From Pseudomonadales bacterium (GTDB lineage: Bacteria; Pseudomonadota; Gammaproteobacteria; Pseudomonadales; Azotimanducaceae): a DNA stretch of 64,000 bases. The translations under genes and the position numbers were made by a program. The stretch spans positions 55,824 through 119,823 of the forward strand of contig CAXXMH010000001.1 of assembly GCA_963664665.2 (NCBI GenBank), read 5' to 3'. The notes beneath the pieces are model-generated. The model had not been told where the DNA came from. It worked only from the letters and a program-made list of their open reading frames with translations, and made no database searches. Below, one piece after another: positions 36,498 through 63,412 of the stretch (its first letter is position 1; each line of letters starts with the position of its first letter).

Positions 36498-36615
36498 TTA
36501 CGCCGTCTTACACTGGATTGAACGAAGCGCGATTATAGGAAGTGATAGCTATTCTGATAGCCGTAAACCGCGAGCCGCCATGTGTGTTTTCCGAGTGAGT
36601 TGCTACCCAGTTCAT

Positions 36616-38819: not shown

Positions 38820-38825
38820 ACAGTA

Positions 38826-39917: not shown

Positions 39918-39977
39918 TTAGTCCTAAAACTTGGTTTCCAGAGCGATTGAGGACTTCTCACGCCACTAACATAACAC

Positions 39978-40004
39978 TCGACAAATATACATGTATATTA
40001 TAAT
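39978..40004 (+). promoter_or_regulatory. Candidate promoter of the TIR gene with an overlapping 14-bp perfect palindrome
   Basis: TCGACA (39978-39983), then a 15-nt spacer, then TATAAT (39999-40004). The spacer is almost entirely the palindrome ATATACATGTATAT (39985-39998). The spacer is shorter than the optimal 17 nt. Confidence 0.3.
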
Positions 40005-40053
40005 TCAGCCTAATTAAAGGCGTATTTCGATTAATGATGGTAAAGGAAATGTC

Positions 40054-41514
40054 GTGAATATTGAAAATGGTGGCGTAAATCCAAAGGCATAAATCAGCTA
40101 TAGTTGGAGTTCTCAAGAACATCAAGAGCTTGTTAGGTCGTGGGCCGATCGTCTAATCAATAATGGCGTTGACGTGGTGCTAGATCAATACGACCTTGAA
40201 CCAGGTGACGACACCTATAAATTCATGGAAAGGATGGTTGCGGACTCAACCGTGTCCCACGTTTTAGTCGTGTGTGACAAAGAGTACGCAGACAAAGCAA
40301 ATGCACGACGAGCAGGTGTTGGCGTAGAGTCGCAGATCATCTCTAAGGAAATTTATGAAGGTGTAGAGCAATCGAAGTTCATTCCAATCGTTACAGAGTT
40401 TAGTTCTGACGGTAAAGCAATCCTGCCTGTATTTATGAGCTCGCGCTTCTGGATCGACTTTTCATCCAATGAGAAGGTGAGGGACTCATGGGAGAGTCTG
40501 ATCCGCGTTCTGTACGACCGTCCACGTCTCGTTAAACCCAAACTAGGTGCAATACCGAAGTACTTAGATGAGGATTCAGTCGAAAACAATAGTGTGATTC
40601 GCGAAAAATTAGAAGTTTTCCGGTCAGCGGTGAAAGCGCGAAATCCAGATATTGCGAACCATAGAGCAGGCCTAATTGCTTCGTGTGTCGAATTTGCAGA
40701 TGGGATGAGAGTCAAGGTACCTTTAACTATAAGTGATCAAGATCTCGGCAGTAAAGTAGTGAACGATTGCAAGCAATTGGTGGCGTCTCGAGATGGACTA
40801 TTAGATTGGCTACTTTTCGACCTCGGCGCAGGTGATCAAAGCGTCGAATCTGCCACATTGACAGATGTGCTCGAGAAGTTATTAGAGCTTAAGGCGCGAC
40901 CTGAGGAATTAGGAGCTTGGAGTGATAAATGGTTCGGGGCACATTCAGTATTCGTCTACGAGTCATTTCTGTACATTGTTGCAGCGTTAATTCGATTTAA
41001 GCGTGCTGATCTTCTTCGATCAATATTCGAGTTCAGCTACCTATTGCCGCCAACGGATCGTGGAGCCGAAGACTTCGGTCGATTTGATCGATTCTGGGGT
41101 CGTTCGGAAGTTCTTTCGGTCGTTCTTCAAACTCCAGACGGTAGAAATTACTTTAGTACAGAGGCGGAGTTGATCAAACGTCAGGCTACGAGAACTGATC
41201 TATCTTTCAATGAAATAATGGAAGCAGAACTCCTGGTTTTTTTAGCTAGCTTGACCGACAACGTTTGTCAGTGGTATCCGGGTACGCTTCACTATGCAGA
41301 ATATAGTTGGGTGTCGCCATTTTTTCTGAGAGCAACTCGCCATTCAGATTTCGAGCTGCTAGCGAGAATCGTGAGGATTGAGAACGCCGACGAATTGCGC
41401 ACGCGAGTGAGAGAACGTTTTGACACAATGAATAGTAATCTCATGGGCAATTTTCGGATGCAAGGAAGCCCCTTCTGGTCCATGATGAATCTTAAAAATC
41501 TCGATACTCTTTAG
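40054..41514 (+). pseudogene. TIR-domain protein with an uncharacterised C-terminal domain of about 330 aa; the native frame is interrupted by an in-frame TAA at 40090-40092
   Basis: The GTG at 40054 has AAGGA 6 nt upstream and reads VNIENGGVNPKA-TAA-ISYSWSSQEHQELVRSWADRLINNGVDVVLDQYDLEPGDD, in frame with the listed ORF 40174-41514. ISYSW..(D/E)H..WV and the GVGVES segment (which retains the conserved Glu) are typical of bacterial TIR/SEFIR-like domains. Confidence 0.7.
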
Positions 41515-41785
41515 TCCACGTATATCGAACTTTCAATTTGTTTTGTGGGCATGCACTTGCGCCACTTACTTCACTCGGCTCATTTCATAGTCAGCGGAGG
41601 TGGGGCACTCAATAAGATTCGCTACATTCACGTCGTAGTAATACCATGTGGTTAATAGAATTGCGCGCATTTGATCGACACACTTAACCAAGGCGTCGGG
41701 GTCTGTCATGACAGGCACGAGATTCGTATTAACGACGCCAGTTTGATTCCAACGTAATTTCGTCCTCTATTTGTAGGAGCATTCC

Positions 41786-42670
41786 ATGAGTGATTTTGAT
41801 GGCAAAGTGGTCATCGTGACAGGCGCTGGAGGCGGTTTAGGTCGCTGTCATGCGCTGCAATTTGCCGAACGCGGTGCGAAGGTCGTTGTGAATGACCTTG
41901 GTGGTGGCGTGCACGGCGGCGGGTCAAGCGACATGGCGGATGCGGTGGTTGACGAGATTAAAGCGGCTGGCGGTGAAGCTGTACCGAACAAAGCGTCCGT
42001 TTCGAGCCGTGAAGGTGCTGCCAGCATCGTTGAGGATGCCGTGAAAGCGTTTGGAACCGTAGATATCGTCGTCAACAATGCCGGAATCCTTCGAGATAAG
42101 TCATTCAAGAACATGACGTTGGACGAGTTCGATCTCGTGATTGATGTTCACCTACGAGGGACCGCATACGTCACGAAGGCTGCGTGGCCGATCATGTATG
42201 AGAAGAACTGGGGACGCGTCGTACTCACCAGTTCAACCTCAGGGATTTATGGTAATTTCGGACAAGCCAACTACGGTGCCGCGAAAATGGCGATGTTGGG
42301 TCTGATGAACGTACTAGCTATCGAAGGCGCGTCACACAACATTCGTGTGAACTGTCTGGCGCCAGGTGCGGCGACGCGCATGACGGCGAGCGTGCCAGGT
42401 TCGACCTTGGACGCCGAGAATCCACCACCTCAAATGGATCCAGCATTGGTCTCTCCCGCTGTACTTTACATGTGCAGCGAGAATGCGCCGTCAGCTGTAA
42501 CCATCCATGCCTCAGGAGGACGTTTCTCACGCTCACAGACGTTCACCAACGAAGGGCTTCGCTTAGGCGAAGATGCGTCCTTTGAGACGCTTGCCGAAGC
42601 GCCGGAATCCGCTCTCGATATGGGAAGTGCAGAACCGTTCGATCCGCTCAATCGGAAGCGAAGAAGCTAG
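41786..42670 (+). CDS. SDR oxidoreductase resembling the (3R)-hydroxyacyl-CoA dehydrogenase domain of multifunctional enzyme type 2
   Basis: 294 aa. VVIVTGAGGGLGRCHALQFAERGAKVVVNDLGG, VVNNAGILRDKSF and SSTSGIYGNFGQANYGAAK run almost colinearly with the N-terminal domain of peroxisomal MFE-2 (HSD17B4) as I remember it. Confidence 0.88.
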   Translation: MSDFDGKVVIVTGAGGGLGRCHALQFAERGAKVVVNDLGGGVHGGGSSDMADAVVDEIKAAGGEAVPNKASVSSREGAASIVEDAVKAFGTVDIVVNNAGILRDKSFKNMTLDEFDLVIDVHLRGTAYVTKAAWPIMYEKNWGRVVLTSSTSGIYGNFGQANYGAAKMAMLGLMNVLAIEGASHNIRVNCLAPGAATRMTASVPGSTLDAENPPPQMDPALVSPAVLYMCSENAPSAVTIHASGGRFSRSQTFTNEGLRLGEDASFETLAEAPESALDMGSAEPFDPLNRKRRS

Positions 42671-42703
42671 CGAACCTTAGCCTGATAGCGACCAAGTTTT
42701 AAG

Positions 42704-42736
42704 AGCCCTATCTAGACGATGGATGGGGCTTTTTTT
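42704..42736 (+). terminator. Intrinsic terminator after the MFE-2-like SDR gene
   Basis: A 9-bp stem AGCCCTATC (42704-42712) / GATGGGGCT (22-30 of the 427xx line, with one G-U pair), a 9-nt loop, then TTTTTTT (42730-42736). Confidence 0.6.
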
Positions 42737-42819
42737 GTTTGAATGGTGACGGGACTGTGTTCAATACAGCATTCTCACTTCACATTCGCGAACGCGGCAT
42801 CTCAGGTGTCGTATAGGAC

Positions 42820-43506
42820 ATGATTCAGTACGATCCTAGAAGTAGCGACGCGCGCTTAATCGTCTACCTCGACATTAAGAGCCCATATGCGTATCTGGCT
42901 AAAGATCCGACAAAACAGCTCGCGGTTGACTTCAACATCGAGATCGATTGGCGCCCGTTGACGCTCAACATCCCTAGTTTTCTAGGCTCGGCGCGTGTTG
43001 ACGATCGCGGTGAAGTCGTCGAGAGTGAAAGGTCACCACGGCAGTGGAGCTCGGTACGTTATTCATACATGGATGCCAAGCGCTATGCGCGTATCCATGA
43101 TATCAAGATCTACGGTCCTCGCAAGATCTGGGATACTCGTCTGATCCATATCGGATTTCTATACGTTAAGGAACGTTACCCCGATCAGCTTCTAACTTTC
43201 CTAGATCGGGTCTATGAACGGTTTTGGTTGCGCGAACTGGATGTGGAGTCTTCCGAGATCGTACATGGAATCCTGCGTGAACTCGGGATTCCCGATGAGG
43301 ACTTTGACGCGTATGTTGAAGGAGAAGGTGGAACATCTCACGACATGCTGCAGGAAGCATTACATCCTGCGGGGATATTTGGCGTGCCGTCCTATATTCT
43401 CGATGACGAACTCTTCTTCGGTCGCGAAAACCTGCCTTACATTCGCTGGAAACTAGGTGGGCGAGATGGACCACCCCCAGATATGGCCTATCGGCATTTC
43501 ACATGA
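42820..43506 (+). CDS. 2-hydroxychromene-2-carboxylate isomerase / kappa-GST family protein (DsbA-like fold, no CxxC)
   Basis: 228 aa. The N-terminal motif YLDIKSPYAYLA has Ser where DsbA has CxxC. The C-terminal motif GIFGVPSYILDDELFFGRE is typical of the HCCA isomerase family. Confidence 0.8.
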   Translation: MIQYDPRSSDARLIVYLDIKSPYAYLAKDPTKQLAVDFNIEIDWRPLTLNIPSFLGSARVDDRGEVVESERSPRQWSSVRYSYMDAKRYARIHDIKIYGPRKIWDTRLIHIGFLYVKERYPDQLLTFLDRVYERFWLRELDVESSEIVHGILRELGIPDEDFDAYVEGEGGTSHDMLQEALHPAGIFGVPSYILDDELFFGRENLPYIRWKLGGRDGPPPDMAYRHFT

Positions 43507-44099
43507 TTGAGCTCGTACTAGATTTTGTGAGCCTGAATGCGTATCTTGCCCTCGGTCCCGCGAAACGACTTGCTGAAGAGCTCGACGTTGAGCTCAAACT
43601 AACGCCTTTGCGTTCCGAAAGTGATCTGAGTTTTCTGTCGCAACCATCTTCTGCTGATGACTTAGGACAGCGTCATCGCCGGATACGCGCTGACTATGCA
43701 CAAGCTGATGTTTTGCGATACGCGGCTGTACAAGGACTGAATATCCAGATCGACGGTAGAAATTACGACTCCACCGTAGCATTGAAAGGCTTACTTGCTG
43801 CGAATGCAGAAGGTAGAGGTTTCGATTACGCGGGTACTGTGTTCGCGCAGTTCTGGGCGGGTGAATTAGCAATCGATTCAAACGACGCGATCGCAAGGGT
43901 GCTGGAGGACTTCGGGGTAGTGGATTTCGATGCCACAGACTCCCATTGGGATCTTGAAAGCGTCAAAGCACAAATGGACAAACGTGAGATCTACTCGGTG
44001 CCGACGTTTGACGTTGAGGGGGAGCGGTATCTCGGTCGTCAACATTTACCGATGATCCGATGGCAACTCGCAGGTTACCAAGGTCCCGGTCCAATTTAG
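43503..44099 (+). CDS. Second DsbA-like / HCCA-isomerase family paralogue
   Basis: 198 aa. It has LDFVSLNAYLA at the N-terminus and VPTFDVEGERYLGRQHL near the C-terminus. It overlaps the previous gene by 4 nt. Confidence 0.7.
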   Translation: MIELVLDFVSLNAYLALGPAKRLAEELDVELKLTPLRSESDLSFLSQPSSADDLGQRHRRIRADYAQADVLRYAAVQGLNIQIDGRNYDSTVALKGLLAANAEGRGFDYAGTVFAQFWAGELAIDSNDAIARVLEDFGVVDFDATDSHWDLESVKAQMDKREIYSVPTFDVEGERYLGRQHLPMIRWQLAGYQGPGPI

Positions 44100-44459
44100 T
44101 TATTTTGATGGTGCTCGTTTCTGAGGCAAGACAGTTTCGAAGTTACTCGATAGTCACTAGAACACATTAGAACGATTACAGCTCATTAATGGAGAGCTAT
44201 GTTGAACTCCGTTTTCTCCGTACGATATCGAATTAAATCGTGGTTTTTCCCGCATTTTTGAAATGTCAATTTCGGCACGTGGCGCGAGTATCTGCCGAAA
44301 ATGCTCTCATCTTCTTACATGATCCATTCATCCGCGGCCGTGAACCTCTGGAACGGTCGAACCGGTTCGGGTGTGAAGAACCACCGTTCGGTGCTGCATC
44401 GCTTGACCGATTTGGTAACCTTGTCGCTCTAACGCAGACAACGCACACAAGCGAGGCAA

Positions 44460-44825
44460 ATGATGTCGGAAGGCTTGGTTGAGATCAGAGACTACACAAT
44501 CGAAAGTTCCCAGTTTGACGGCTATCGGGAGTGGGCTCACAAGCTGGCGGCCCCGTGGCTTTTGGCCAATCTTGATGTAATCGACTTCTGGCTTGATGAC
44601 GGCAGCGAGGCGGAGGTGACGGGTACCGCACCACATGTCTCACCGAACGGTCAGGCCAATGTGTGCTGGATCATACACTGGCCGGACCGAGCCACCCGCG
44701 ACGAAGGGATGCGCCAATTGGGACGCAATCCCGAGTGGCAGGCGATCTGGGCCAAGCACCCATGCCCGGACGCCTATCTGCAGATGAACGCTCGCTTCAT
44801 GAAAGCGGCTCGCGACGCTATCTGA
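44460..44825 (+). CDS. NIPSNAP-like / dimeric alpha-beta barrel protein
   Basis: 121 aa. The pattern VEIRDYTI...GYREW...W...R..G resembles NIPSNAP family domains. This is a weak, memory-based call. Confidence 0.55.
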   Translation: MMSEGLVEIRDYTIESSQFDGYREWAHKLAAPWLLANLDVIDFWLDDGSEAEVTGTAPHVSPNGQANVCWIIHWPDRATRDEGMRQLGRNPEWQAIWAKHPCPDAYLQMNARFMKAARDAI

Positions 44826-44950
44826 AAACGTTTAGCCTTGATCTAGGTAGAAACAGTAGTTTGTGTCCGGAGGTCTTGTTACCCTATCGCGTCTCATATG
44901 TGAGAGAAAGTGCTAATTTAGACGCGATTTGAACGACATGTTCTCAATCG

Positions 44951-46519
44951 TTAGAAAGGCTTCTGGCGTCCCATTAACGTGTCATCCCAACGACGGTCTT
45001 GTAGAAAACGTAATGCCGTCGCATGACTGCTAGTTGTACCAATTCGAGTTAGCGCCTCAACCGCAACCGCGGGAACGTAACCGTTAGGATCTTGCAGAAC
45101 CCGTTCCAATACCGCTTCGATCTTGTCGAGATCGTTGTCGTAGTTGATACCGCTTAATAAAGCGAATGTTGCGTTCAACCTAACCTGGTCTTCGCCGGTC
45201 CAACCGCGCATAACTTCAGCGTCCTGCCATTGGGGATTCGAAGTCGTTAACAGTCGTTGCATGGGTTCCAACGCGAAATCCATGCCTTCGCCAATAGACG
45301 CGATTGCGTCGAGCGTTTGTCGCACTACCTGCTGATGCGGATCGTCCAGCAGTTTGATGATTTCAGGCATTGCTACTCGAGCCGATGGTCCGATTTCGCC
45401 AAGCGCGAACACTGCATTGATGCGCACCCATGGGTCAGCGTTTTGTAGGAGTTCGGCCAATGGACCCACCGCGGGTTCGCCAGACGAAGCAAGCGCGTAA
45501 GCCGCATCGTCAAATACGATCGCACGTTCATTCCAACGTCGTTCAGTTCCGATGACATGATCCCTAGGGATCGACTTGCCTTCTTTATTGACGGCTTTGC
45601 GTCTTTCGTGCATGCCTTGGTTCGCCAAGCCGCGAAGTTGGTCGATCAACACTTGAATATCTGCATCGGTAACGGAGTGGTAGACACTGCGCATTCGTTG
45701 TTCTTCATCCAATGAATTCAGCGCATTAGTGTCGATACCGCCGTTGGTATGTTTACGTTCGTCGCCGCGCATCCAATGCCAGATGTATTGCCATGCTGGA
45801 TCAAGGTCGACCTCCGTACGAGTAGATTCCGGCACTTGCCACTCCACGTCACGACTTTGCCATGTAGGGATGCGTGGGTAGTCTGTTCGTGTAAACACGA
45901 TCTTGATCATGTATCGAGCATGGTCGGTACGATTTGGCCAACCTGCATGAACCGTATCGAAATGTAGTAGCAAGAATGAACCGGCATTTACGTGATCTGG
46001 TAATACCACGCCAGTAGGTTCGTGTGGTTCGCTGAAGAGGTAGCTGCCGGCTTGATACCTCGTTGGACCCATGATTTCCGGCGTGTAGTGCGGGAAATAG
46101 AAGGCAATCAGGTACTTCGGTGTGTGGTGCCGCGCGCGTGATAGCGGACTTTGTGCATCCTGGTGCCATCCGGACCCGGCCATCGATCCCTTTCCCATCG
46201 CGGGAGCGTTGTGGTCTGGGGCATAGTTGACATCTCTGTCCTCGACCGGACGGCTTGTATGGATCGCCCGGTGAGGATGGACGTAGTAGTTGGGTCCTAG
46301 TAGGCTCGTGAGTGCGCCTCGGATATTCGGCGCACGGAGGATTTCCCAAATCTCGGGTACACGAGATAGGACGTTGTTACCTGCTGGAAACTCATTCTCG
46401 GTTGAGAAACGAAGTTTTTCATCGATCTTACTGTGAATCTCGGGATCGACATCTGGCTTGAACCCGAGACAGCCGTCGACGATAAATTGGCGTACTTGCT
46501 CATCGGTGAGGAGTTTCAT
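44951..46519 (-). CDS. Fe(II)/2-oxoglutarate dioxygenase of the phytanoyl-CoA dioxygenase (PhyH) family fused to C-terminal HEAT repeats
   Basis: 522 aa. It has a PhyH-type N-terminus (LLTDEQVRQFIVDGCL), the HxD motif in GSGWHQDA, and a distal His in LLHFDTVHAGWPNR. The C-terminal ~200 aa carry HEAT/PBS-lyase-like repeats (DPWVRINAVFALGEIG, DDPHQQVVRQTLDAIASIG, DPNGYVPAVAVEALTRIG). Confidence 0.8.
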   Translation of the reverse strand: MKLLTDEQVRQFIVDGCLGFKPDVDPEIHSKIDEKLRFSTENEFPAGNNVLSRVPEIWEILRAPNIRGALTSLLGPNYYVHPHRAIHTSRPVEDRDVNYAPDHNAPAMGKGSMAGSGWHQDAQSPLSRARHHTPKYLIAFYFPHYTPEIMGPTRYQAGSYLFSEPHEPTGVVLPDHVNAGSFLLLHFDTVHAGWPNRTDHARYMIKIVFTRTDYPRIPTWQSRDVEWQVPESTRTEVDLDPAWQYIWHWMRGDERKHTNGGIDTNALNSLDEEQRMRSVYHSVTDADIQVLIDQLRGLANQGMHERRKAVNKEGKSIPRDHVIGTERRWNERAIVFDDAAYALASSGEPAVGPLAELLQNADPWVRINAVFALGEIGPSARVAMPEIIKLLDDPHQQVVRQTLDAIASIGEGMDFALEPMQRLLTTSNPQWQDAEVMRGWTGEDQVRLNATFALLSGINYDNDLDKIEAVLERVLQDPNGYVPAVAVEALTRIGTTSSHATALRFLQDRRWDDTLMGRQKPF

Positions 46520-46559
46520 GTTTTGATATTCAACCTAGAGATGTTCAGGGTGGTCGCGC

Positions 46560-47276
46560 TCATGTGAAGGCTAACGCGCGCGCAAAATCAGTATCGGTGC
46601 CTCGAAGTATGAGGTGTTTCACCTGAGTGTAGGCTGAAGATGAGACGCGAATCAAGTCGTTGAGAAAGTCACGAGATGACTCTCGGATATCGGGTTCCCC
46701 GTCGACGATTGCATGTGCAAGCCCGAACTCAATCGCTTGTGAGCCGTTCATGATCTCGCCGAGGTATGCAACGCGTGAGACGACGGAGAGATTTGTGAGG
46801 CGCGGTAGCTTGTAGGACCAACCTTCTGCAGCCCACAGCGCGCGATCGATGCGTGGATCGCCGTATCGAATGTCGGGTGTTACGACGCGAAAATCGCAAG
46901 ACAGGCTGTAGTCATAACCGGAACCGAGCGCAATGCCGTGCATTAACGCGACCGTAGGTTTAGAAAGGTGGTGGAGCCGACTGCAGGATTGCAGCAGAAC
47001 CGCAGGTCCACTACCCATTTCGAGATCAACCTTGCGATGTCGGTGCGGATCCTCGCCTTCGTATGGTGCGGCAGAGAGATCATCGCCGGAACAGAACCCG
47101 CGACCGATTCCGGAAAGGGCAACAACCTTGACGTTTGGGTCGTTTTCCGCGAGTTCGAATTGCGACATCAATCGAAGATGTTGTGCATAGTCGATCGCAT
47201 TAATTTTGGAAGGTCGATTGAGTATGAGGTGACGCACGCCATCCTCATCTTTTATCAACAGTGGCTCGTCGCTCAC
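46560..47276 (-). CDS. Enoyl-CoA hydratase/isomerase (crotonase) family protein
   Basis: 238 aa. It has a crotonase fold pattern (VRHLILNRPSKINAID, VVALSGIGRGFCSGDDL, ALMHGIALGSG). Confidence 0.85.
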   Translation of the reverse strand: MSDEPLLIKDEDGVRHLILNRPSKINAIDYAQHLRLMSQFELAENDPNVKVVALSGIGRGFCSGDDLSAAPYEGEDPHRHRKVDLEMGSGPAVLLQSCSRLHHLSKPTVALMHGIALGSGYDYSLSCDFRVVTPDIRYGDPRIDRALWAAEGWSYKLPRLTNLSVVSRVAYLGEIMNGSQAIEFGLAHAIVDGEPDIRESSRDFLNDLIRVSSSAYTQVKHLILRGTDTDFARALAFT

Positions 47277-48070
47277 GTACCCGAAAACTCCGGGTCGCGT
47301 CGTTCACGCCACGCTTTGATGCCTTCGACACGATCGTTTATGACATGGGTTTGGCGAATCCCCAACGAGTGGATCATGGCGCTTTCGAAATCCAAATGTT
47401 GTTGACCTAACACCTGCATCTTGTGAACTTGCCAAGCGCGTGTGGCCATACGAGAAATTCGGTTCGAGAAGGTGGTCATGTGGTCATCGAAATTGGCGTC
47501 GTTGGCGATTTCATGGACAAAGTGAATCCGATGTGCCTCCGCTGCATTCAGTTTTTCACCAAGCAACAGGATCCGCATCGCTTGCGATTGACCCACGAGT
47601 TTAGGGAGCAGATAAGCGATCCCTGTGTTGGCGGCGCGTCCTTGAAGAATACGTGTGTCGCACATCGACATTGACGAGTTAGCGATGCGAATGTCACACG
47701 TCGCTGCGAGATCGATCGCGATGCCGTTCACGACATCGCGCATGTATGCAATCAGCGGCTTTGTGAATTCGCGTAATGCAGTCAGCGCAGCTTGTTCAAC
47801 GATGGGACCGTGTCCGTGCGAACCTTCAGGCAATCGAAGCTGGAAGCGTTGAGGCACCGCCATCATGTTCTCAGGATCGTCACCATCGGCAGTTAGTTGA
47901 ATTGCGACAGCGCGCACGTTTGGGTCGTCGTGTGCAGCGGCGACTGCAGTCGCCAGCGAGTCTAACGATTCATAGTTGACGTGGTTTCCTAGTAATCGGA
48001 AACTAAGTACGTTCTCATCTTGCGTGCACGCGATCGAATCGTTGCTGAATTGTTGCTCGTAGTCAGGCAT
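47273..48070 (-). CDS. Enoyl-CoA hydratase/isomerase (crotonase) family protein, divergent
   Basis: It has crotonase-like blocks (NVRAVAIQLTADG, KPLIAYMRDVVNGIAIDLAATCDIRIA). I chose the start at the ATG at 48070, which overlaps the mobA stop as ATGCCTGA. The listed ORF starts at 48103. Confidence 0.78.
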   Translation of the reverse strand: MPDYEQQFSNDSIACTQDENVLSFRLLGNHVNYESLDSLATAVAAAHDDPNVRAVAIQLTADGDDPENMMAVPQRFQLRLPEGSHGHGPIVEQAALTALREFTKPLIAYMRDVVNGIAIDLAATCDIRIANSSMSMCDTRILQGRAANTGIAYLLPKLVGQSQAMRILLLGEKLNAAEAHRIHFVHEIANDANFDDHMTTFSNRISRMATRAWQVHKMQVLGQQHLDFESAMIHSLGIRQTHVINDRVEGIKAWRERRDPEFSGT

Positions 48071-48674
48071 GGTCGTGTTCGTTAGTCGCTCTAGATCGCG
48101 CAATCGCTAGTTCTTCGTGTGTATTGACATTTAGAAAAGAATCATCGATCGAACTCAAGTCAGTAGATCGAATCCCGGCGTCATCTAGCCAATGTTTTAC
48201 GGCGTTCCCACCGCGCGCATGAAAGTCGATCAACTGTTCGCGATGTTCCGCGTCAATGAGCAGGCACAAGTTCTGTCGCACACCATTGACGGTTGGTACT
48301 GCGATTCCACGCGTCTCTGCGTCAGTCCGTAGACGTTCGACTATGTCACCTGCAATGAATGGCGTATCGCCAGGCGTGGTAAATGCCCATTCGGTATCGA
48401 CGTGTGCAAACGATTCAGTCAATCCAGCTAAAGGTCCGAGGTTTAGTTCCTTGTCTATCGCAAGTGGATGGCGAAGTGCTTCGTAGATTCCCACATTCCG
48501 AGAGCAAGAAATCACAATGTCGCTCACTTGTGGTTCGAGTCTTTCACAAATCCAATCGATCAGACGCTTCCCGTTAAGAGTCATTAGTGGCTTGTCTTGC
48601 CCGTCTAGCCTGGAACCCTTACCACCACAGAGTACGATCGCAGTGACAGCTTCAGGAGTCGCATTGTTCGCCAT
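48063..48674 (-). CDS. mobA: Molybdenum cofactor guanylyltransferase
   Basis: 203 aa. It has the N-terminal motif AIVLCGGKGSRLDGQDKPL and the motifs GPLAG and TPGDTPF. Confidence 0.85.
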   Translation of the reverse strand: MANNATPEAVTAIVLCGGKGSRLDGQDKPLMTLNGKRLIDWICERLEPQVSDIVISCSRNVGIYEALRHPLAIDKELNLGPLAGLTESFAHVDTEWAFTTPGDTPFIAGDIVERLRTDAETRGIAVPTVNGVRQNLCLLIDAEHREQLIDFHARGGNAVKHWLDDAGIRSTDLSSIDDSFLNVNTHEELAIARSRATNEHDHA

Positions 48675-48676
48675 CG

Positions 48677-49534
48677 CTAAGCCAATGCGCCGTGCGATGT
48701 GTAGACGTTGTAACCGCTTTCGCGTAGAAACCCTACGAGGGTGATATTGCGTTCGTCGGCCAGCTCGATTGCTAGGTTAGACGGTGGTCCGATCGAGGCA
48801 ATGAACGGCATACTGGCCATTGCAGCCTTTTGAACGAGCTCGAAGCCCGCTCGACCACTCAATAGGAGTCCGAGATTCCGGAGGGGTGCACCTGATTCGT
48901 ACACATACGATCCGATTAGCTTGTCGACCGCGTTGTGCCGGCCGACATCCTCTCTTACGCGTTGAATTTCGCCAGACTCGTCGACCGTCGCGGCTGCGTG
49001 TAGCCCGCCCGTTCGTTGGAAGTCAGTTTGCCAAGATTGCAACCGATCCGGCAGCGTACGCAGTATGTCGTGCTCAATCCGGTAGTTACTTTCGACCGTC
49101 CCTGACAACGGTGCATCAATCGCCTCAATGGATGTCTTGCCGCATACGCCACAACTGGAAGTCGTATAGAAATTACGCTGTAATCGCTCAAGATCAAGGT
49201 CAGCGTTAGGCGCTAGCTCGACCTGAACGACATTCTGGTAACCCTTATCCGGGCTTGGCGGTCCGCAGTAACGAACGTCAGTAAAGTCGCTTGCTTCTCT
49301 AATGACGCCTTCGCAGAGTAGGTACCCTAGGGCTAGCTCGAAATCTTGACCCGGGGTTCGCATCGTGACGGAAATCGTGTGCGTGAGCCCATCTGTCTTT
49401 GATATCTGCAATTCCATCGGCTCTTCGACGCTGACCACGTCGTGTACCGTGTTGGCAACACCGTCTGAGACGCGATCAAGAAGGATGCGGACACTTGAAG
49501 GTGCACTCGAGCTTTCGCTCGGTATCGTGCTCAT
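48677..49534 (-). CDS. fdhD: Formate dehydrogenase accessory sulfurtransferase
   Basis: 285 aa. It has the motifs SSCGVCGK, GGLHAA and GRHNAVDK. Confidence 0.9.
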   Translation of the reverse strand: MSTIPSESSSAPSSVRILLDRVSDGVANTVHDVVSVEEPMELQISKTDGLTHTISVTMRTPGQDFELALGYLLCEGVIREASDFTDVRYCGPPSPDKGYQNVVQVELAPNADLDLERLQRNFYTTSSCGVCGKTSIEAIDAPLSGTVESNYRIEHDILRTLPDRLQSWQTDFQRTGGLHAAATVDESGEIQRVREDVGRHNAVDKLIGSYVYESGAPLRNLGLLLSGRAGFELVQKAAMASMPFIASIGPPSNLAIELADERNITLVGFLRESGYNVYTSHGALA

Positions 49535-52368
49535 TTACCGACGGGCAGTAGCTCGACTTGCTGTTCGCGTCGTTCGTTGAAATCCAATTGCCAATCCGCT
49601 TGATGGTTTGCGGGTGTGATTTCAACCGCCGTGACCTTGTATTCGGGACAATTGGTGAACTCGTCGGACAGGCTCGTCGTAATCACGTTCGTGCCGGTTC
49701 CAGGGTAGTGGAAAGTCGTGTATACAACACCGGGCACGACCTTTTCTGTCACTTCCGCGCGCAACGTTATCTCGCCGACACGACTGCGAATTGATACCCA
49801 ATCAGCGCTCCGTATACCGCGAAGTTCAGCGTCACTCGGATGAATCTCTAATACATCTTCATCCAACCAAACGGTGTTTTCCGTGCGGCGCGTCTGTGTA
49901 CCAACGTTGTAGTGATGTAGTTTTCTGCCCGTGGTCAGCAGCAACGGGAACTTCCGGTTTGTACGTTCTTCGGTCGGTACGTACTCAGTGATCTTGAACA
50001 GGCCCTTACCGCGAACGAATTCGTCGACGTGCATGACTGGTGTGCCTTCGGGTGACTCGTCTGTCACGGGCCACTGGGCGCTATGCACTTCGTCGAGATG
50101 CTCGAATGACAGTCTTTGGAAGTCCGGTGTGGAAGTCGCAAGTTCATCCAGGATGTCACCGGATGACCGGTACGACATGTCGTAGCCCATCGCTTTTGCG
50201 ATTTCGCATGTGACTTCCCACTCGTGCTTTTCGGTCTTCGGCGCGATTGCGGGTCGAACTCGATTGAAGCGGCGTTCTGCATTTACAAACGTGCCGTCTT
50301 TTTCGAGGAATGACGTTCCCGGTAGAAAAATGTGTGCGAATTTAGCGGTTTCCGTCAGGAACAGGTCTTGCACAATCACGCAATCCATGGCGCGAAGCGC
50401 TTCTTCAACGTGCTTTGTATTCGGGTCGGACTGCGCAAAGTCCTCACCTTGAATATACATGCCCATGAAGGTGCCGGCGACGGCTTCATCGAACATGTTC
50501 GGTATGCGTAAGCCGGGTTCCTTGTCGATGGTGACGCCCCAGAGTTCATTGAAGCTCTCACGCACTTTCTCGCTCACAACCGGACGATGCCCAGGCAATT
50601 CATGCGGGAACGAGCCGACGTCGGTCGAGCCTTGTACGTTGTTCTGGCCACGGAGCGGGTTGATGCCTACGCCTTTCCGACCGATGTTGCCAGTTGCCAT
50701 CGCGAGATTCGCCATCCCCATGACCATCGCGGAACCTTGGCTATGTTCGGTAACGCCGAGACCATAGTAGATCGACGCGTTGGGCGCGGCCGCGTACATG
50801 TGCGCAGCTTCGCGCAAACTTTCCGCTGTCACGCCGCATATCTCGGCGACTGCTTCAGGTGAGTTTTCGTCGCGTCGAATAAACTCACACCAATCTTCAA
50901 ATGAATCGAACTCGCACCGTGACTTAACGAAATCCAAGTCACAGAGTTCTTCGGTCACAATGACGTGTGCGAGCGCATTGATGAACGGCAGATTGGTACC
51001 GGGTTTAAGTGGAACGTGAACTGCGGCTTCCACGTGCGGTGATCGCACGAAATCGATCTCGCGCGGATCTGCGACGATGACTTTAGCGCCTTCACGTAAG
51101 CGTTGCTTCATTCGACTTGCGAATACCGGGTGACCCTGAGTTGGATTTGCGCCAATCAGCAGCACTAGGTCGGTATCTGCAACGGAGTCGAAGTCCTGAG
51201 TACCCGCAGCAGTGCCAAAGGTCTGGATCAAACCATATCCTGTCGGGGAGTGGCATACGCGCGCGCAGGTGTCGATGTTGTTGTTACCAAATGCCGTACG
51301 CACGAGCTTTTGGACAACATAGATTTCCTCGATCGTCACACGGGATGAGGAAACGGCACCAATTGACTTTCGCCCGTATTTCGATTGGATCTCGGTCAAT
51401 CGTTTCGCAGTCTCTTGTATCGCTACGTCCCACGACACCTCTTGCCACGGCTCATCAATACTGTCTCGAATCATGGGCTTATAGATTCGGTCTTGGTGGT
51501 TTGCATAGCCCCACGCGAAACGACCTTTAACGCAGGAGGCACCATGATTCGCCTTGCCTGCTTTGTCCGGTACCATCCGAACGACCTGGTCACCTTTCAT
51601 TTCCGCTTTGAAGGAGCAACCGACGCCGCAATAGCCGCACGTAGTCAATACCGTACGATCAGGAACGCCATGCTCGATGACGGATTTTTCCATTAAAGTG
51701 GCTGTAGGGCACGCTTGAACACACGCACCGCACGACACACACTCCGAATCGAAGAATGACTCCGCGCCTGTTGAAATCTTGGACGCAAAGCCGCGATCGT
51801 CAACCGTGAGCGCAAAAGTCCCTTGAATCTCGTCGCACGCTCGAACGCAACGTGAGCAAACGATGCACTTGGATGGGTCGAACGTGAAATAGGGGTTGCT
51901 CTCGTCTTTCGTTTCACTGAGGTGATTCGCACCTTCTTCGTAACGCACTTCACGCAACCCAACCTGGCCTGCGACATCCTGCAATTCGCAATCACCATTC
52001 GCCGAACACGTCAGGCAGTCGAGCGGGTGGTCAGAGATATAGAGTTCCATGACGCCGCGTCGTAAGTCGGCGATCGACTCATTCTGCGTGACGACCTCCA
52101 TTCCCGCGGCGACCGGTTCAGTACATGCTGCGAAATAACCGTTCCGACCTTCGATTTGCACCATGCACATCCGACATGAGCCGAACGCCTCCAGGCTATC
52201 AGTCGCGCATAGTTTGGGGATCTCTAGATCGAGTAATGAGGCAGCGCGCATGATGGACGTGCCGGTCGGCACGGCTACAGATTGACCGTCTATCGAAAGG
52301 GTGACCGAATCGTTCGGATCGAAATGGGCTATCGGCGGTGTGCCGAAGTCCTTGTCAAGCAATCTCAT
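49531..52368 (-). CDS. fdsA: NAD-dependent formate dehydrogenase alpha subunit (molybdopterin; Cys at the Sec-equivalent site)
   Basis: 945 aa. It has N-terminal 2Fe-2S and 4Fe-4S Cys clusters like NuoG, followed by a molybdopterin oxidoreductase core. The active-site segment CARVCHSPTGYGL aligns with E. coli FdhF CARVUHGPSVAGL, so this enzyme has Cys, not Sec. There is no in-frame stop. Confidence 0.93.
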   Translation of the reverse strand: MRLLDKDFGTPPIAHFDPNDSVTLSIDGQSVAVPTGTSIMRAASLLDLEIPKLCATDSLEAFGSCRMCMVQIEGRNGYFAACTEPVAAGMEVVTQNESIADLRRGVMELYISDHPLDCLTCSANGDCELQDVAGQVGLREVRYEEGANHLSETKDESNPYFTFDPSKCIVCSRCVRACDEIQGTFALTVDDRGFASKISTGAESFFDSECVSCGACVQACPTATLMEKSVIEHGVPDRTVLTTCGYCGVGCSFKAEMKGDQVVRMVPDKAGKANHGASCVKGRFAWGYANHQDRIYKPMIRDSIDEPWQEVSWDVAIQETAKRLTEIQSKYGRKSIGAVSSSRVTIEEIYVVQKLVRTAFGNNNIDTCARVCHSPTGYGLIQTFGTAAGTQDFDSVADTDLVLLIGANPTQGHPVFASRMKQRLREGAKVIVADPREIDFVRSPHVEAAVHVPLKPGTNLPFINALAHVIVTEELCDLDFVKSRCEFDSFEDWCEFIRRDENSPEAVAEICGVTAESLREAAHMYAAAPNASIYYGLGVTEHSQGSAMVMGMANLAMATGNIGRKGVGINPLRGQNNVQGSTDVGSFPHELPGHRPVVSEKVRESFNELWGVTIDKEPGLRIPNMFDEAVAGTFMGMYIQGEDFAQSDPNTKHVEEALRAMDCVIVQDLFLTETAKFAHIFLPGTSFLEKDGTFVNAERRFNRVRPAIAPKTEKHEWEVTCEIAKAMGYDMSYRSSGDILDELATSTPDFQRLSFEHLDEVHSAQWPVTDESPEGTPVMHVDEFVRGKGLFKITEYVPTEERTNRKFPLLLTTGRKLHHYNVGTQTRRTENTVWLDEDVLEIHPSDAELRGIRSADWVSIRSRVGEITLRAEVTEKVVPGVVYTTFHYPGTGTNVITTSLSDEFTNCPEYKVTAVEITPANHQADWQLDFNERREQQVELLPVGK

Positions 52369-52383
52369 TGCAGCAGGATTGAA

Positions 52384-53880
52384 TTAACGGAAATCTTCTG
52401 GAAAACGCTCAAGCGCACTTCGAACGGGAATCGGCGTCATGCCACCCATTTGGCACAAGCTTGCGTTTTCCATTACGTCACAGAGCTCGCGAATTAATTG
52501 TATATCCGCGTCCACATTGCCGGTATTCTGCAAACCTTGGACTAACTCCTTACCGCGAACGCTGCCAATGCGGCACGGCGTGCACTTTCCGCAGGACTCG
52601 ATTTCACAGAATTCGAAGGCATATTCCGCTTGTTCACGAAGATCAACGGTATCGTCGAAGACCACCAGACCCCCATGTCCGATTCCAGCGCCGATCGCTT
52701 GCATGGCTTCATAGGTGAGAGGCGTGTCGAGTTCGGCGTCCGATAAATATGCGCCTAAAGGACCGCCGATCTGCACACACCGAAATGGTCTCCCTGAACG
52801 CGTACCGCCGCCGTAGTCCTCGACGAGTTCGCGAATGGTGTGTCCAAACTCAAGCTCGATGAGCCCGCCGTACTTCACGTTTCCTGCGATCTGGAATGGA
52901 ATGGTCCCACACGAAGGCGCAACTCCGAGCGCACCATACTGCTCGCCGCCTAGATCAAACAGACTAGGAACGGAAGCAAGCGTGATGACGTTGTGCACCA
53001 GCGTCGGTCTATCGAACAGGCCGGATATCGCCGGCAACGGCGGTTTGACTCGAATCTGTCCCCGTTTACCTTCAAGGCTTTCGAGGAGAGATGTTTCCTC
53101 TCCACAAATGTAGGCGCCAGCGCCGAGAAATACCTGCAAGTCGAAAGAAAAGTCACTTCCGAAGATGTTGTTTCCTAGTAGATTCTCTTCATAAGCTCTT
53201 GAAATAGAACGCTTTAATTCGTGCATCGCAAATGGATACTCGGATCGCAGATAGATATACCCGTGCGCTGCTCCGCACGCGTAACCAGCGATCGCCATGC
53301 CTTCGATTAGTGCGTCCGGATCGCCTTCCATGAGCATGCGATCCGAGAAAGTGCCGGAGTCGCCCTCATCGGCGTTACAGACGATGTAGCGTTGATCGGC
53401 TGGCGTGTCAGCGACTGTTCGCCACTTGATGTGCGCAGGGAAACCTGCGCCGCCGCGTCCGCGTAGACCCGCGGTCTGTAGCTCGTCGATCAAATCGCGG
53501 GGATTCCGCTCGAGCACGCTCTTCAGCGTCGCGTAGGTGGGCGTGTCCGTGAGCGAGGCATACCCGACGTTTCGAAAGACAAGGCGTTGTTGGGATTTAA
53601 GAAACGAATGCCGGTGAATGTCCCCTAGGTAAGCGGGATGTTGCTCAATAGAATCTTTGCTCTTGATCGCTTCAACAAGGTCAGGAACCATCTCTGCGGA
53701 CACGGGTCCAAACGCAATTCTGCCATCGGGAGAATCGAATTCGATCAGAGGTTCCAGCCATGCGAGACCGTAAGAACCGACGTCGACACAGTCGATTCCA
53801 TGAGTAGCTAATCCGATTTCAACGGCTGATTTGCCAAGCGCGTGTGCGAATGAGTCATTCGATAGGTATGCAATTGTCAC
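52384..53880 (-). CDS. fdsB: Formate dehydrogenase beta subunit (NuoF-like, NAD/FMN/4Fe-4S)
   Basis: 498 aa. It has the motifs GRGGAGFP, GAGAYICGEETSLLESLEG and ESCGKCTPCR. Confidence 0.9.
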   Translation of the reverse strand: MTIAYLSNDSFAHALGKSAVEIGLATHGIDCVDVGSYGLAWLEPLIEFDSPDGRIAFGPVSAEMVPDLVEAIKSKDSIEQHPAYLGDIHRHSFLKSQQRLVFRNVGYASLTDTPTYATLKSVLERNPRDLIDELQTAGLRGRGGAGFPAHIKWRTVADTPADQRYIVCNADEGDSGTFSDRMLMEGDPDALIEGMAIAGYACGAAHGYIYLRSEYPFAMHELKRSISRAYEENLLGNNIFGSDFSFDLQVFLGAGAYICGEETSLLESLEGKRGQIRVKPPLPAISGLFDRPTLVHNVITLASVPSLFDLGGEQYGALGVAPSCGTIPFQIAGNVKYGGLIELEFGHTIRELVEDYGGGTRSGRPFRCVQIGGPLGAYLSDAELDTPLTYEAMQAIGAGIGHGGLVVFDDTVDLREQAEYAFEFCEIESCGKCTPCRIGSVRGKELVQGLQNTGNVDADIQLIRELCDVMENASLCQMGGMTPIPVRSALERFPEDFR

Positions 53881-54371
53881 AGGTGAGATAACACCTGGTC
53901 TGCGGTGGCGTTGGACACGAGTTGACCATTGATCTCCACTGCGGGTCCGTTAGGGCACAGTCCGAGGCAGTAAACAAAGCTTACAGTTGTTTCGCCATCG
54001 GCAGTTTTGCAAGGAATCGTTGACCCCAAGTGTGACTCAATCGCTGCGACTAAATCCCTAGATCGATTAGCCTGACAAGCCTCTGCTGTACATATACGCA
54101 GCAAATTAGTCGGTTGCGGTTCTGTCTTGAAGTCGTGGTAGAAGCTAATGATGCCACTGACTTCGGCAACGCTTAAATTAAAGATGTCTGCGAGAATGTG
54201 CTTCTGGTCGGCACTGATATACCCAAACTCTCTCATCAAGCGGTGACAGGCGTGAATAATTCCGCCGACGAGGTTTGTACAGGGTTGTAATAGCTCTCGC
54301 ACTTCGGCCTCGGACATACACGGGCGGCGATAGGGGATGCGCCGATTATATGGTCGAACGTCCCTAGGCAA
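53877..54371 (-). CDS. fdsG: Formate dehydrogenase gamma subunit (NuoE-like 2Fe-2S)
   Basis: 164 aa as listed, with a TTG start; an alternative ATG at 54317 gives MSEAEV.... It has the NuoE-type Cys pattern (ICTAEACQ ... YCLGLCPNGPA). Confidence 0.8.
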   Translation of the reverse strand: MPRDVRPYNRRIPYRRPCMSEAEVRELLQPCTNLVGGIIHACHRLMREFGYISADQKHILADIFNLSVAEVSGIISFYHDFKTEPQPTNLLRICTAEACQANRSRDLVAAIESHLGSTIPCKTADGETTVSFVYCLGLCPNGPAVEINGQLVSNATADQVLSHL

Positions 54372-54418: not shown

Positions 54419-55768
54419 GTGAAATACGAGTACGATCTCTTCGTTATTGGTGCAGGCTCTGGCGGCGTGCGAGCAGCACGAATGTCTGCGAATCTGGGTG
54501 CAAAAGTTGCTGTCGCGGAGGAGCGCTATCTCGGCGGCACCTGTGTTAACGTAGGGTGTATCCCAAAGAAGCTATTCGTCTACGGAAGTCATTTCAGTGA
54601 GGACTTCGATGAATCTGCGGCGTACGGATGGAACGTTCGCGATACCGATTTCGACTGGTCAACGCTACTCGCGAACAAGAATAAAGAGATCTCACGTTTG
54701 AATGGGATATATCGAAACCTACTTGAGTCTCCCGGAGCGGAGATTTTCGAGACCCACGCTGAACTTACGGACGCTCACACGATTCAAGTAGGAGACCACC
54801 AGGTCACTGCGGACAAGGTCCTGGTAGCGACAGGTTCATGGCCTTCAGTACCTGATCTCCCCGGTCGCGAGTACATTCAGACGTCGAATGACGCGTTTTT
54901 CTTCGAATCGTTGCCGGAACGAGTGATTGTCGTCGGAGGTGGATACATCGCTGTTGAGTTCGCGGGGATATATCAAGGATTAGGTGTCGAGACGACGTTA
55001 CTTTACCGCGGTCCGTTGTTTCTGCGCGGTTTCGATGACTCAGTTCGAGAATTTGTACGCGATCAACTGATTGAGAAAGGCGTTGACGTTCGGTTCAATG
55101 CCAACGTTGACGAGGTGACGCTAACAGCGGGGGGTAAGGTCGCACGCTTGTCAGACGGGTCACAGGTTGTCGCGGATGAGATTCTGTACGCGACGGGACG
55201 TCGTCCGTTATCTTCGTCATGTGGATTGAGTGCGGCTGGCGTACAAACGGATGCAAACGCCGCAATTCGTGTTAACTCTGACTACAGCACGAATGTTCCG
55301 AATATCTACGCCATCGGTGACGTGATAGACCGGATGCAGCTGACACCTGTGGCGATTGCCGAAGGTATGTGTATCGCATACAACCTGTTTGCGAGTGAAT
55401 CACGCAAGGTGAACTACGACGACATTCCAACCTCCGTTTTCTGCCAACCGAATATCGGCACAGTCGGACCCACGGAGGCTGTCGCGCGCACGACGTATCC
55501 GGACTTGCATGTCTACGAGTCGTCGTTCCGACCCCTCAAGTACACGATGTCGGATAATCAGGAGCGCACATACATGAAATTGCTCGTGGATGGTGACTCT
55601 GACCGCGTTGTGGCAGCACACATGGTCGGACCGGAAGCAGGTGAGATCATCCAAGGATTGGCTGTGGCAATCAAAGCCGGAGCAACAAAAGATGATTTCG
55701 ACGCAACGATCGGGATTCACCCGACCGCTGCGGAAGAGTTCGTCACCATGCGCGATCGGTCGCGCTAA
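54419..55768 (+). CDS. gor: Glutathione-disulfide reductase
   Basis: 449 aa. It has the redox-active motif GGTCVNVGCIPKK, the FAD motif DLFVIGAGSGG, and the C-terminal motif TIGIHPTAAEEFVT. Confidence 0.9.
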   Translation: MKYEYDLFVIGAGSGGVRAARMSANLGAKVAVAEERYLGGTCVNVGCIPKKLFVYGSHFSEDFDESAAYGWNVRDTDFDWSTLLANKNKEISRLNGIYRNLLESPGAEIFETHAELTDAHTIQVGDHQVTADKVLVATGSWPSVPDLPGREYIQTSNDAFFFESLPERVIVVGGGYIAVEFAGIYQGLGVETTLLYRGPLFLRGFDDSVREFVRDQLIEKGVDVRFNANVDEVTLTAGGKVARLSDGSQVVADEILYATGRRPLSSSCGLSAAGVQTDANAAIRVNSDYSTNVPNIYAIGDVIDRMQLTPVAIAEGMCIAYNLFASESRKVNYDDIPTSVFCQPNIGTVGPTEAVARTTYPDLHVYESSFRPLKYTMSDNQERTYMKLLVDGDSDRVVAAHMVGPEAGEIIQGLAVAIKAGATKDDFDATIGIHPTAAEEFVTMRDRSR

Positions 55769-63406: not shown

Positions 63407-63412
63407 TTCACG

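Follow-up and report, generated by a model that had tools for sequence, protein, structure and literature searches.

The 64,000-nucleotide stretch of contig CAXXMH010000001.1 analyzed here (assembly GCA_963664665.2, a Pseudomonadales bacterium of the Azotimanducaceae; hereafter the window) carries on its minus strand an array of eight genes that is probably a composite operon. In this lineage, an ordinary NAD-linked formate dehydrogenase (FDH) module appears to have become joined to an autonomous cassette that would oxygenate an acyl-CoA. The cassette consists of two crotonase-fold genes, ECH1 and ECH2, followed by a gene for an Fe(II)/2-oxoglutarate (Fe/2OG) oxygenase. It is well conserved, so far undescribed, and restricted to marine and sponge-associated Pseudomonadales; no description of the ECH1-ECH2-oxygenase combination was found in the literature searched. 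The FDH part is ordinary, and the interest of the array lies in the three-gene cassette. The assignment draws on direct observations of which genes are present, how they adjoin, which motifs they carry, and how they are distributed among relatives. The array has the following members, from its 5' to its 3' end.

53877..54371, minus strand: fdsG, NuoE-like 2Fe-2S gamma subunit (Pfam 2Fe-2S_thioredx, E = 5e-29)
52384..53880, minus strand: fdsB, NuoF-like FMN/NAD-binding beta subunit (Pfam Complex1_51K, E = 4e-44; NADH_4Fe-4S, E = 4e-24)
49531..52368, minus strand: fdsA, molybdenum bis-pyranopterin guanine dinucleotide (Mo-bisPGD) catalytic alpha subunit (TIGR01591, 862 bits against a cutoff of 666)
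48677..49534, minus strand: fdhD, FDH accessory sulfurtransferase (TIGR00129, 152.9 bits against a cutoff of 140.9)
48063..48674, minus strand: mobA, molybdenum cofactor guanylyltransferase (Pfam NTP_transf_3, E = 6e-30)
47273..48070, minus strand: ECH1, degenerate crotonase-fold subunit (Pfam ECH_1, E = 2e-20; alignments)
46560..47276, minus strand: ECH2, crotonase-fold subunit (Pfam ECH_2 and ECH_1; alignments)
44951..46519, minus strand: Fe/2OG oxygenase (Pfam, alignments, AlphaFold2 model, and Foldseek)

The eight co-directional genes span 9421 nt (44951–54371). The open reading frame (ORF) map and the sequence reproduce the original prediction in its eight genes, all of its junctions, and its length of ~9.4 kb, and the tight co-directional array that it described is real. 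The fdsG and fdsB genes overlap by 4 nt, fdsB and fdsA are separated by 15 nt, fdsA and fdhD overlap by 4 nt, and fdhD and mobA are separated by 2 nt (TAG-CG-ATG). The stop of mobA overlaps the start of ECH1 by 8 nt (ATGCCTGA). This start is the ATG at 48070, the residue at which orthologue alignments begin; the longest ECH1 ORF would begin at a TTG at 48103. ECH1 and ECH2 overlap by 4 nt (GTGA), and a gap of 40 nt separates ECH2 from the oxygenase gene. The terminator or stable structure that might have divided mobA from the crotonase genes was looked for and neither was found: a terminator scan detected no terminator-like sites on the minus strand between 41000 and 55500, and RNA structure at the mobA/ECH1 junction is not unusual (z = +0.74). 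The one feature noted 3' of the oxygenase stop is a 9-bp inverted repeat, which lacks a U-tract. An Rfam scan of the whole window returned a single tRNA, and no molybdenum cofactor or other riboswitch in the operon. The FDH genes and the cassette are thus predicted to be co-transcribed in this genome, and probably are. The FDH block lies between the divergent gor gene and ECH1, and its last gene, mobA, runs into ECH1; transcription of the cassette therefore most likely starts at the FDH promoter.

The fdsGBA-fdhD-mobA genes are predicted to encode a complete cysteine-type, NAD-linked molybdenum FDH with its own cofactor-maturation genes, and Pfam and NCBIfam bear out the FDH gene identities proposed earlier. 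FdsA matches the equivalog model of the alpha subunit and has the Cys-His pair (C372-H373, within the motif CARVCHSPTG) with no in-frame stop, and NuoF-like and NuoE-like subunits are co-encoded. Three NCBIfam models scored just or well below their cutoffs (FdsG, 126.6 bits for NF004638, cutoff 198; FdhD, 268.2 bits for NF001943, cutoff 269; MobA, 138 bits for TIGR02665, cutoff 152). The start of fdsG is uncertain, as orthologues are called at 146 amino acids (e.g., the gene call in related locus L001). The module resembles the FdsGBA enzymes (with FdsC/FdhD) of Rhodobacter capsulatus and Cupriavidus necator in its NuoE-like, NuoF-like, and NuoG-fused Mo-bisPGD subunits, its Cys-His motif, and the presence of the FdhD sulfurtransferase in the operon. 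It differs from them in having mobA in the operon and three non-FDH genes appended; in addition, no fdsD-like ORF was identified, although small ORFs were not specifically searched. A selenocysteine-type FdsA was considered, given selA and selB in the window, and rejected on the basis of the uninterrupted ORF with Cys372. The selB and selA genes are located at 3164–6438 on the minus strand, and no tRNA-Sec is present within the window. As FdsA is of the cysteine type, the genome must encode another selenoprotein at some other site. A moaA gene and a DUF1285 gene are found 8 kb from the FDH operon (62441–63940), and this moaA-DUF1285 synteny is also kept in L003, a locus that lacks the FDH block.

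To place the array among its relatives, window proteins were mapped onto related loci (L numbers) by tblastn; counts are of species representatives. The 80 representative loci all come from uncultured Pseudomonadales, 'Candidatus Azotimanducaceae', and allied marine gammaproteobacteria, many of them from sponges. The closest public locus (L006, a Pseudomonadales metagenome-assembled genome) has an oxygenase 97% identical in amino acids and, across the locus, is 92–93% identical in nucleotides. The remainder of the window consists of housekeeping genes (prfC, gltA, hom, recJ, prfB, lysS, scpAB, gyrA, pheA, tyrA, cmk, and bio genes), which places the cluster in the core chromosome.

The conserved unit is the three-gene cassette. 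ECH1, ECH2, and the oxygenase gene are contiguous in 40 GTDB species representatives, and in L086, L089, and L090 the cassette stands alone amid unrelated flanks. In three more species (L014, L018, and L022), opposite-strand, VOC-family/PhnB-like genes (L014:9304-9852; L018:7904-9956; L022) come between ECH2 and the oxygenase gene, accompanied in L018 and L022 by a DUF2332 gene. The cassette is therefore not always a single transcription unit.

The original prediction proposed a comparative check on whether the linkage of FDH, crotonase, and oxygenase genes recurs, and it does. Among the 37 species that could be assessed, 17 have the fdsGBA-fdhD-mobA block upstream of ECH1; these 17 fall in five separated subclades of the oxygenase tree, down to ~50% oxygenase identity. 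Across the close clade the mobA stop overlaps the ECH1 start or lies within ~50 nt of it, and in the distant L088 the gap is 44 nt. Other genes can intervene: a cytochrome c-fused pyrroloquinoline quinone (PQQ) dehydrogenase is located co-directionally between mobA (4-nt overlap) and ECH1 in two loci (L021:6530-8383 and L046:6531-8402), and an opposite-strand CMAS-type methyltransferase gene separates the FDH block from ECH1 in the L005 clade. In L003 and L080, both flanks are collinear with the window and exactly the five FDH genes are missing. The order kept in these loci is DUF1285-moaA-Mur ligase...Na/Ala symporter-gor, ECH1-ECH2-oxygenase, DSBA-DSBA-SDR, FMO (the last three being neighbors described below), and in such FDH-less relatives gor is directly divergent from ECH1, as in L003. 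Pairwise distances of FdsA and of the oxygenase are correlated (r = 0.96; Mantel, 0 of 2000), as would equally be expected for any two vertically inherited genes. Together with the tree, this correlation fits a single ancestral linkage of FDH and cassette followed by several losses. Repeated independent acquisition of FDH fits these data less well and was rejected. The linkage is thus real, old, and dispensable. As a side observation, the FDH operon gains different passenger genes in different lineages. In L088, an Ldh_2-family dehydrogenase gene (L088:1219-2310) lies 8 nt before fdsG and extends the operon at its 5' end to Ldh_2-fdsGBA-fdhD-mobA-ECH1-ECH2-oxygenase.

The oxygenase is composed of a PhyH-like double-stranded beta-helix (residues ~1–230) and C-terminal HEAT repeats (~340–510). 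A confident AlphaFold2 model (predicted local distance difference test score 88, predicted template-modeling score 0.91) has the N-terminal double-stranded beta-helix followed by a HEAT solenoid. In an alignment of 64 orthologues, H119-x-D121, H191, and R202 are invariant. H191 and R202 align to the distal His and Arg of PHYHD1, and the HxD aligns to that of ThoJ. The Arg lies 11 residues past the distal His, equal to the spacing in human PHYH (H264/R275). The protein is accordingly assigned, from sequence and the predicted model, as an Fe/2OG hydroxylase of the PhyH-like clade at the level of the superfamily. The 'PhyH' label of the original prediction holds for the HxD...H...R motif and the fold, but not for the family model, as the match to Pfam PhyH (PF05721; E = 0.0013) reached 19.5 bits where 22 are required. 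The top Foldseek matches are SptF, PtlH, ThoJ, FtmOx1, GriE, KanJ, and HygX (probability 1.0; target-normalized TM-score ~0.5; 11–21% identity), and human PHYH is not among the best 50. The best sequence match in the PDB, found by phmmer with the N-terminal domain, is PHYHD1, and it is marginal (E = 0.064). When the alignment of the full-length oxygenase was used for a profile search of the PDB, the matches were dominated by artificial HEAT/armadillo repeat proteins, and this search was set aside. As judged by these comparisons, the oxygenase does not qualify as an orthologue of PHYH, and nothing specific appears to link it to phytanoyl-CoA. Its best structural neighbors, SptF, PtlH, ThoJ, FtmOx1, GriE, and KanJ, act in secondary and amino acid metabolism and share the HxD...H...R motif, but their identity is 11–21%, and they have no HEAT domain and no coupling to crotonases or CoA-transferases.

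A second, paralogous HEAT-fused oxygenase with 35–39% identity was observed in nine loci (L076–L079 and L081–L085), and several genomes carry both it and the cassette (L076/L006, L077/L009, L078/L008, and L079/L007). The paralogue is located directly 3' of a TonB-dependent receptor gene in at least six loci (e.g., L077), without crotonase genes. A fragment of a 45%-identical oxygenase occurs in L075, a contig labeled SAR324 cluster bacterium JCVI-SC AAA005, and could reflect either horizontal transfer or a contaminating contig in a single-cell assembly.

ECH1 and ECH2 belong to the crotonase superfamily at the level of the fold (Pfam, 94.8 and 82.6 bits for ECH2 and 73.6 for ECH1; cutoff 27). 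Residues were numbered according to rat enoyl-CoA hydratase, using a reference 100% identical to PDB 9rgq/1dub. In both proteins alike, the catalytic E144 is replaced by Asp and E164 by Arg, and these substitutions are invariant across 43–45 orthologues. ECH2 retains both oxyanion-hole motifs (LsG.GR.Fc.GDD and HG.aLGSG) and is shorter by ~30 C-terminal residues, such that the C-terminal lid is gone. ECH1 has neither oxyanion-hole motif and keeps a conserved C-terminal helical region ('EG..AWRErR.p.F'). Of the features of a canonical enoyl-CoA hydratase, the pair of Glu is therefore absent from both proteins and the two oxyanion motifs from ECH1. Since Asp and Arg stand in place of both catalytic Glu, the predicted chemistry is a non-hydratase crotonase reaction and not hydration, and the invariance of the Arg suggests that the substrate bears an anionic group. 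ECH1 is most likely a degenerate paralogue that provides the C-terminal lid lost from ECH2, and the two are probably an obligate heteromer with ECH2 as the catalytic subunit. The best PDB sequence matches of the pair are the Geobacillus enoyl-CoA hydratase subunits I and II (2pbp and 2ej5) and PaaG (6sla), heteromeric and specialized crotonases that similarly pair paralogous subunits. Unlike these, the ECH1/ECH2 pair has Asp and Arg in place of the catalytic Glu, and has lost the oxyanion hole from ECH1 and the lid from ECH2. None of the 215 database homologues of ECH1 is informatively named, and all those whose source names an organism come from gammaproteobacterial or Pseudomonadales metagenome-assembled genomes. 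In the closest relative (L006:8484-9243), ECH1 aligns over residues 1–137 only and NCBI annotates a 64-amino acid partial protein, which probably reflects an assembly gap or frameshift.

The original prediction supposed acyl-CoA-type substrates, and the gene context agrees with this, as the oxygenase gene is translationally coupled either to the two crotonase-fold genes or, in five species, to a CoA-transferase gene. In these five (L036, L037, L040, L042, and L049), a single gene encoding an 807-amino acid protein replaces ECH1-ECH2 and overlaps the oxygenase start by 1 nt; L087:7578-9998 is an example of such a fused gene. The two halves of this family-III CoA-transferase match the two benzylsuccinate CoA-transferase subunits (E = 1e-49 and 1.5e-69; BbsE-like N-terminal half, BbsF-like C-terminal half), and the next NCBIfam matches are succinate-glutarate and succinyl-CoA:mesaconate CoA-transferases. 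A DddD-like dimethylsulfoniopropionate CoA-transferase/lyase was considered for this protein and rejected, because the halves match benzylsuccinate CoA-transferase subunits best. On the opposite strand in L035 and L053, ~1 kb upstream of ECH1, there is an AMP-ligase (acyl-CoA-ligase) motif. A CoA-thioester substrate can reasonably be inferred for the cassette from the one subclade in which a fused BbsEF-like CoA-transferase stands in for the crotonases.

We propose that a carboxylic acid is activated as a CoA thioester and then hydroxylated by the Fe/2OG oxygenase. The acid would carry a second anionic group, because the crotonase Arg is invariant and a BbsEF-like transferase is the alternative partner. 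The Asp/Arg crotonase pair, with the active site supplied by ECH2 and the lid by ECH1, would process the hydroxylated product by hydrolyzing the thioester, by decarboxylation, or by cleaving a C-C bond. Some metabolic connection with formate is plausible, though less likely than not, and none would be required for the cassette to function.

Several observations weigh against the composite-operon reading. The FDH block and the cassette stay adjacent while the outer flanks vary by clade (gor, MutS, or Ldh_2), which hints mildly at selection on the pairing, in which case a description as separable modules would underplay it. Oxygenase clades below 50% identity have non-CoA neighbors (SOUL, ThuA, ankyrin, aldose epimerase, and amidohydrolase). 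These neighbors are heterogeneous and have no common theme, and the distant clades were therefore dropped as a guide to the substrate; the assignment of a CoA ester is restricted to this orthogroup. Lastly, a scan for sigma-70-like promoters between 41000 and 55500 yielded one match against 10.6 expected from shuffled sequences, a strong depletion, with no match upstream of fdsG or gor; the scan is uninformative for this organism, and a promoter may be present inside mobA.

The alternative that fares best is neutral synteny, in which the FDH operon has no metabolic relation to the cassette, and intergenic loss in this lineage fused both into one transcription unit without significance for a pathway. 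We consider this a possibility to be taken seriously, while leaning against it. The FDH block is cleanly present or absent in collinear genomes, and elsewhere genes are interposed (the methyltransferase gene of the L005 clade and the PQQ-cytochrome c dehydrogenase gene of L021 and L046). Carriers all belong to one bacterial family, for which vertical co-inheritance alone predicts the distance correlation, and no enzyme of the cluster has a known formate-releasing reaction. Neutral synteny accounts less well for an adjacency that persists at ~50% oxygenase identity with differing outer flanks, and for a junction that is tight in two distant clades (the 8-nt overlap here and the 44-nt gap in L088).

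The remaining alternatives call on neighboring genes, which are as follows.

54419..55768, plus strand: gor, glutathione-disulfide reductase, divergent from fdsG (NF004776, 600 bits against a cutoff of 480)
44460..44825, plus strand: DUF1428-like small protein, convergent with the oxygenase gene (Pfam DUF1428, E = 4.8e-7)
43503..44099, plus strand: DSBA-fold protein 2, 2-hydroxychromene-2-carboxylate (HCCA) isomerase/kappa-class glutathione S-transferase (GST)-like (Pfam DSBA; PDB 2imd, E = 2e-6)
42820..43506, plus strand: DSBA-fold protein 1, HCCA isomerase/kappa-class GST-like (Pfam DSBA; PDB 2imd, E = 9e-10)
41786..42670, plus strand: MFE-2-type (3R)-hydroxyacyl-CoA dehydrogenase, a short-chain dehydrogenase/reductase (SDR) (PDB 2et6, E = 3e-127; HSD17B4, E = 2e-71)
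36440..41735, no strand assigned: low-GC insertion of 5.3 kb (Pfam; GC 0.46–0.49; absent from the 92–93% identical L006)
34545..36497, minus strand: flavin monooxygenase (FMO)/Baeyer-Villiger-like protein (Pfam FMO-like; 70% identity to the L001 orthologue)

Of the labels given to these neighbors in the original prediction, the two kappa-GST/HCCA-isomerase-like proteins stand, both matching HCCA isomerase 2imd, as does the MFE-2-like SDR. The latter is a predicted MFE-2-type (3R)-hydroxyacyl-CoA dehydrogenase by its matches to solved MFE-2 dehydrogenase domains (2et6, E = 3e-127; 1gz6, E = 2e-71; 1zbq, E = 2e-70). The ORF at 44460–44825, called NIPSNAP, instead matches DUF1428; DUF1428-like homologues occur near the cassette in L006, L024, L027, L035, L041, L047, and L053. 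A terminator-like hairpin (42701–42733) lies 3' of the SDR gene. In relatives, the FMO-like gene is divergent from the SDR gene, whereas here the two are separated by the insertion in their intergenic region, which encodes an Eco57I-like N6-methylase, a BsuBI/PstI-type restriction endonuclease, and a 446-amino acid TIR-domain protein. It looks like a small defense island and lies outside the cassette and FDH module. The FMO-like protein has a partial NCBIfam match to PtlE. A tRNA-Pro (GGG) gene (34506–34582, plus strand) overlaps the FMO-like ORF in antisense over its final ~35 nt, and the 3' end of this ORF may be over-called. Linkage to the cassette was observed in 24 of 40 species for the DSBA-fold genes, 17 for SDR, and 9 for FMO. 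The neighbors suggest glutathione-dependent and oxygenative CoA-ester chemistry, without defining a pathway.

One pathway that these neighbors could form, which we regard as unlikely, has the oxygenase hydroxylate an unactivated carbon of a CoA-bound acid, the SDR oxidize the product to a ketone, and the FMO, as a Baeyer-Villiger monooxygenase (BVMO), convert this to an ester, with the glutathione-dependent HCCA-isomerase-like proteins and gor handling isomerization or ring opening. The pentalenolactone pathway uses a hydroxylase, an SDR, and a BVMO in the same order. The best NCBIfam match of the FMO-like protein is the BVMO PtlE, the top fold matches of the oxygenase include PtlH, and the divergent DSBA-DSBA-SDR-FMO set is conserved at the frequencies given above, with gor adjoining. 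However, these similarities are all at the level of the superfamily, the SDR, a very conserved 3-hydroxyacyl-CoA dehydrogenase of the MFE-2 type, is not PtlF-like, FMO is linked in just 9 of 40 species, and no esterase was found in the cluster.

Equally improbable in our estimation is a thiamine diphosphate (ThDP)-independent release of formate from a CoA-bound acid, which would thereby be shortened or opened: the oxygenase would oxygenate the acid, the Asp/Arg crotonases would hydrolytically cleave off one carbon in a BoxC-like manner, and the ancestrally linked FDH would recover the reducing power. BoxC is a crotonase-fold, ring-cleaving enzyme that releases formate. The cassette resembles the Box pathway (benzoyl-CoA epoxidase BoxAB and BoxC) in having an oxygenase that would act on a CoA thioester, followed by a non-hydratase crotonase-fold enzyme. 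It differs in that BoxB is a di-iron rather than an Fe/2OG enzyme, BoxC is a single protein of ~550 amino acids, and no aromatic-acid genes lie near the cassette. No Box-specific model occurs among the best 25 of 66–70 NCBIfam matches for ECH1 and ECH2. If true, such a reaction would give bacteria a new route whose function is analogous to that of alpha-oxidation but whose mechanism is unrelated.

The original prediction itself favored alpha-oxidation of 3-methyl-branched (for example, phytol-derived) or other acyl-CoAs, and this proposal has become very unlikely. In it, phytanoyl-CoA is 2-hydroxylated and cleaved to formyl-CoA and a one-carbon-shorter aldehyde, a crotonase hydrolyzes formyl-CoA, FDH oxidizes the formate, and the SDR aids beta-oxidation of the 2-methyl-branched product. 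The PhyH-superfamily fold and motif of the oxygenase, the MFE-2-type dehydrogenase next door, and the recurrence of the FDH linkage in relatives are consistent with it. There are also bacterial precedents: a 2-hydroxyacyl-CoA lyase route in which formyl-CoA yields formate, which is oxidized by an induced NAD-linked FDH (PMC7176365), and putative alpha-oxidation genes in SAR202 (PMC5395668). Alpha-oxidation cannot proceed without a ThDP-dependent 2-hydroxyacyl-CoA lyase. Both precedents include such a lyase (PMC7176365, PMC5395668), and none is found here. The ThDP motif GDG-x(20-32)-NN does not occur in any frame of the 64-kb window, and none of its seven matches in 90 related loci is credible, each being either spurious or part of an ankyrin-like protein >3.7 kb away from the cassette; these motif scans covered loci and not whole genomes. 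Similarly, motif scans detected no AMP-binding (ligase), aldehyde dehydrogenase (ALDH), acyl-CoA dehydrogenase, or thiolase signature in the window. The absence from the window of a lyase and of an acyl-CoA ligase, offered earlier as caveats, was thus upheld. Among related loci, a ligase motif occurs in L035 and L053 only, and a CoA-transferase in five loci only. The array resembles peroxisomal alpha-oxidation (PHYH, HACL1, and ALDH) and the bacterial lyase route (PMC7176365) in having a PhyH-superfamily oxygenase near CoA-ester enzymes and an NAD-linked FDH at hand for formate. It differs from both in lacking a ThDP lyase, ligase, and ALDH at the locus, and in that its oxygenase is not orthologous to PHYH: the Pfam match is below cutoff, and the structural neighbors act on terpenoids, amino acids, and aminoglycosides. 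Moreover, the crotonases lack both catalytic Glu, and half of the species carry the cassette without FDH.

Least probable is an oxidative demethylation in which the oxygenase frees a methyl group as formaldehyde and a glutathione route delivers formate to FDH; gor and two glutathione-type DSBA-fold proteins adjoin, a PQQ dehydrogenase occurs within the L021 and L046 FDH operons, and the FDH of marine heterotrophs commonly serves one-carbon oxidation following demethylation (PMC5395668), but Pfam annotation of the window showed no Gfa, class-III alcohol dehydrogenase, or S-formylglutathione hydrolase, and the invariant crotonase Arg argues against cationic methylammonium substrates.

Two traits make the cassette unusual. 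The crotonase core and lid appear to be split over two polypeptides with the Glu replaced, and the PhyH-like oxygenase carries a HEAT domain. A 'PhyH' annotation should be treated with caution, as it is not evidence for bacterial alpha-oxidation of phytanate. The hosts of the cassette are abundant, uncultured marine and sponge-associated Pseudomonadales. If its substrate were identified, the cassette would represent a new oxygen-dependent step in the CoA-ester catabolism of marine heterotrophs, and if formate is a product, this would explain the retention of FDH beside it.

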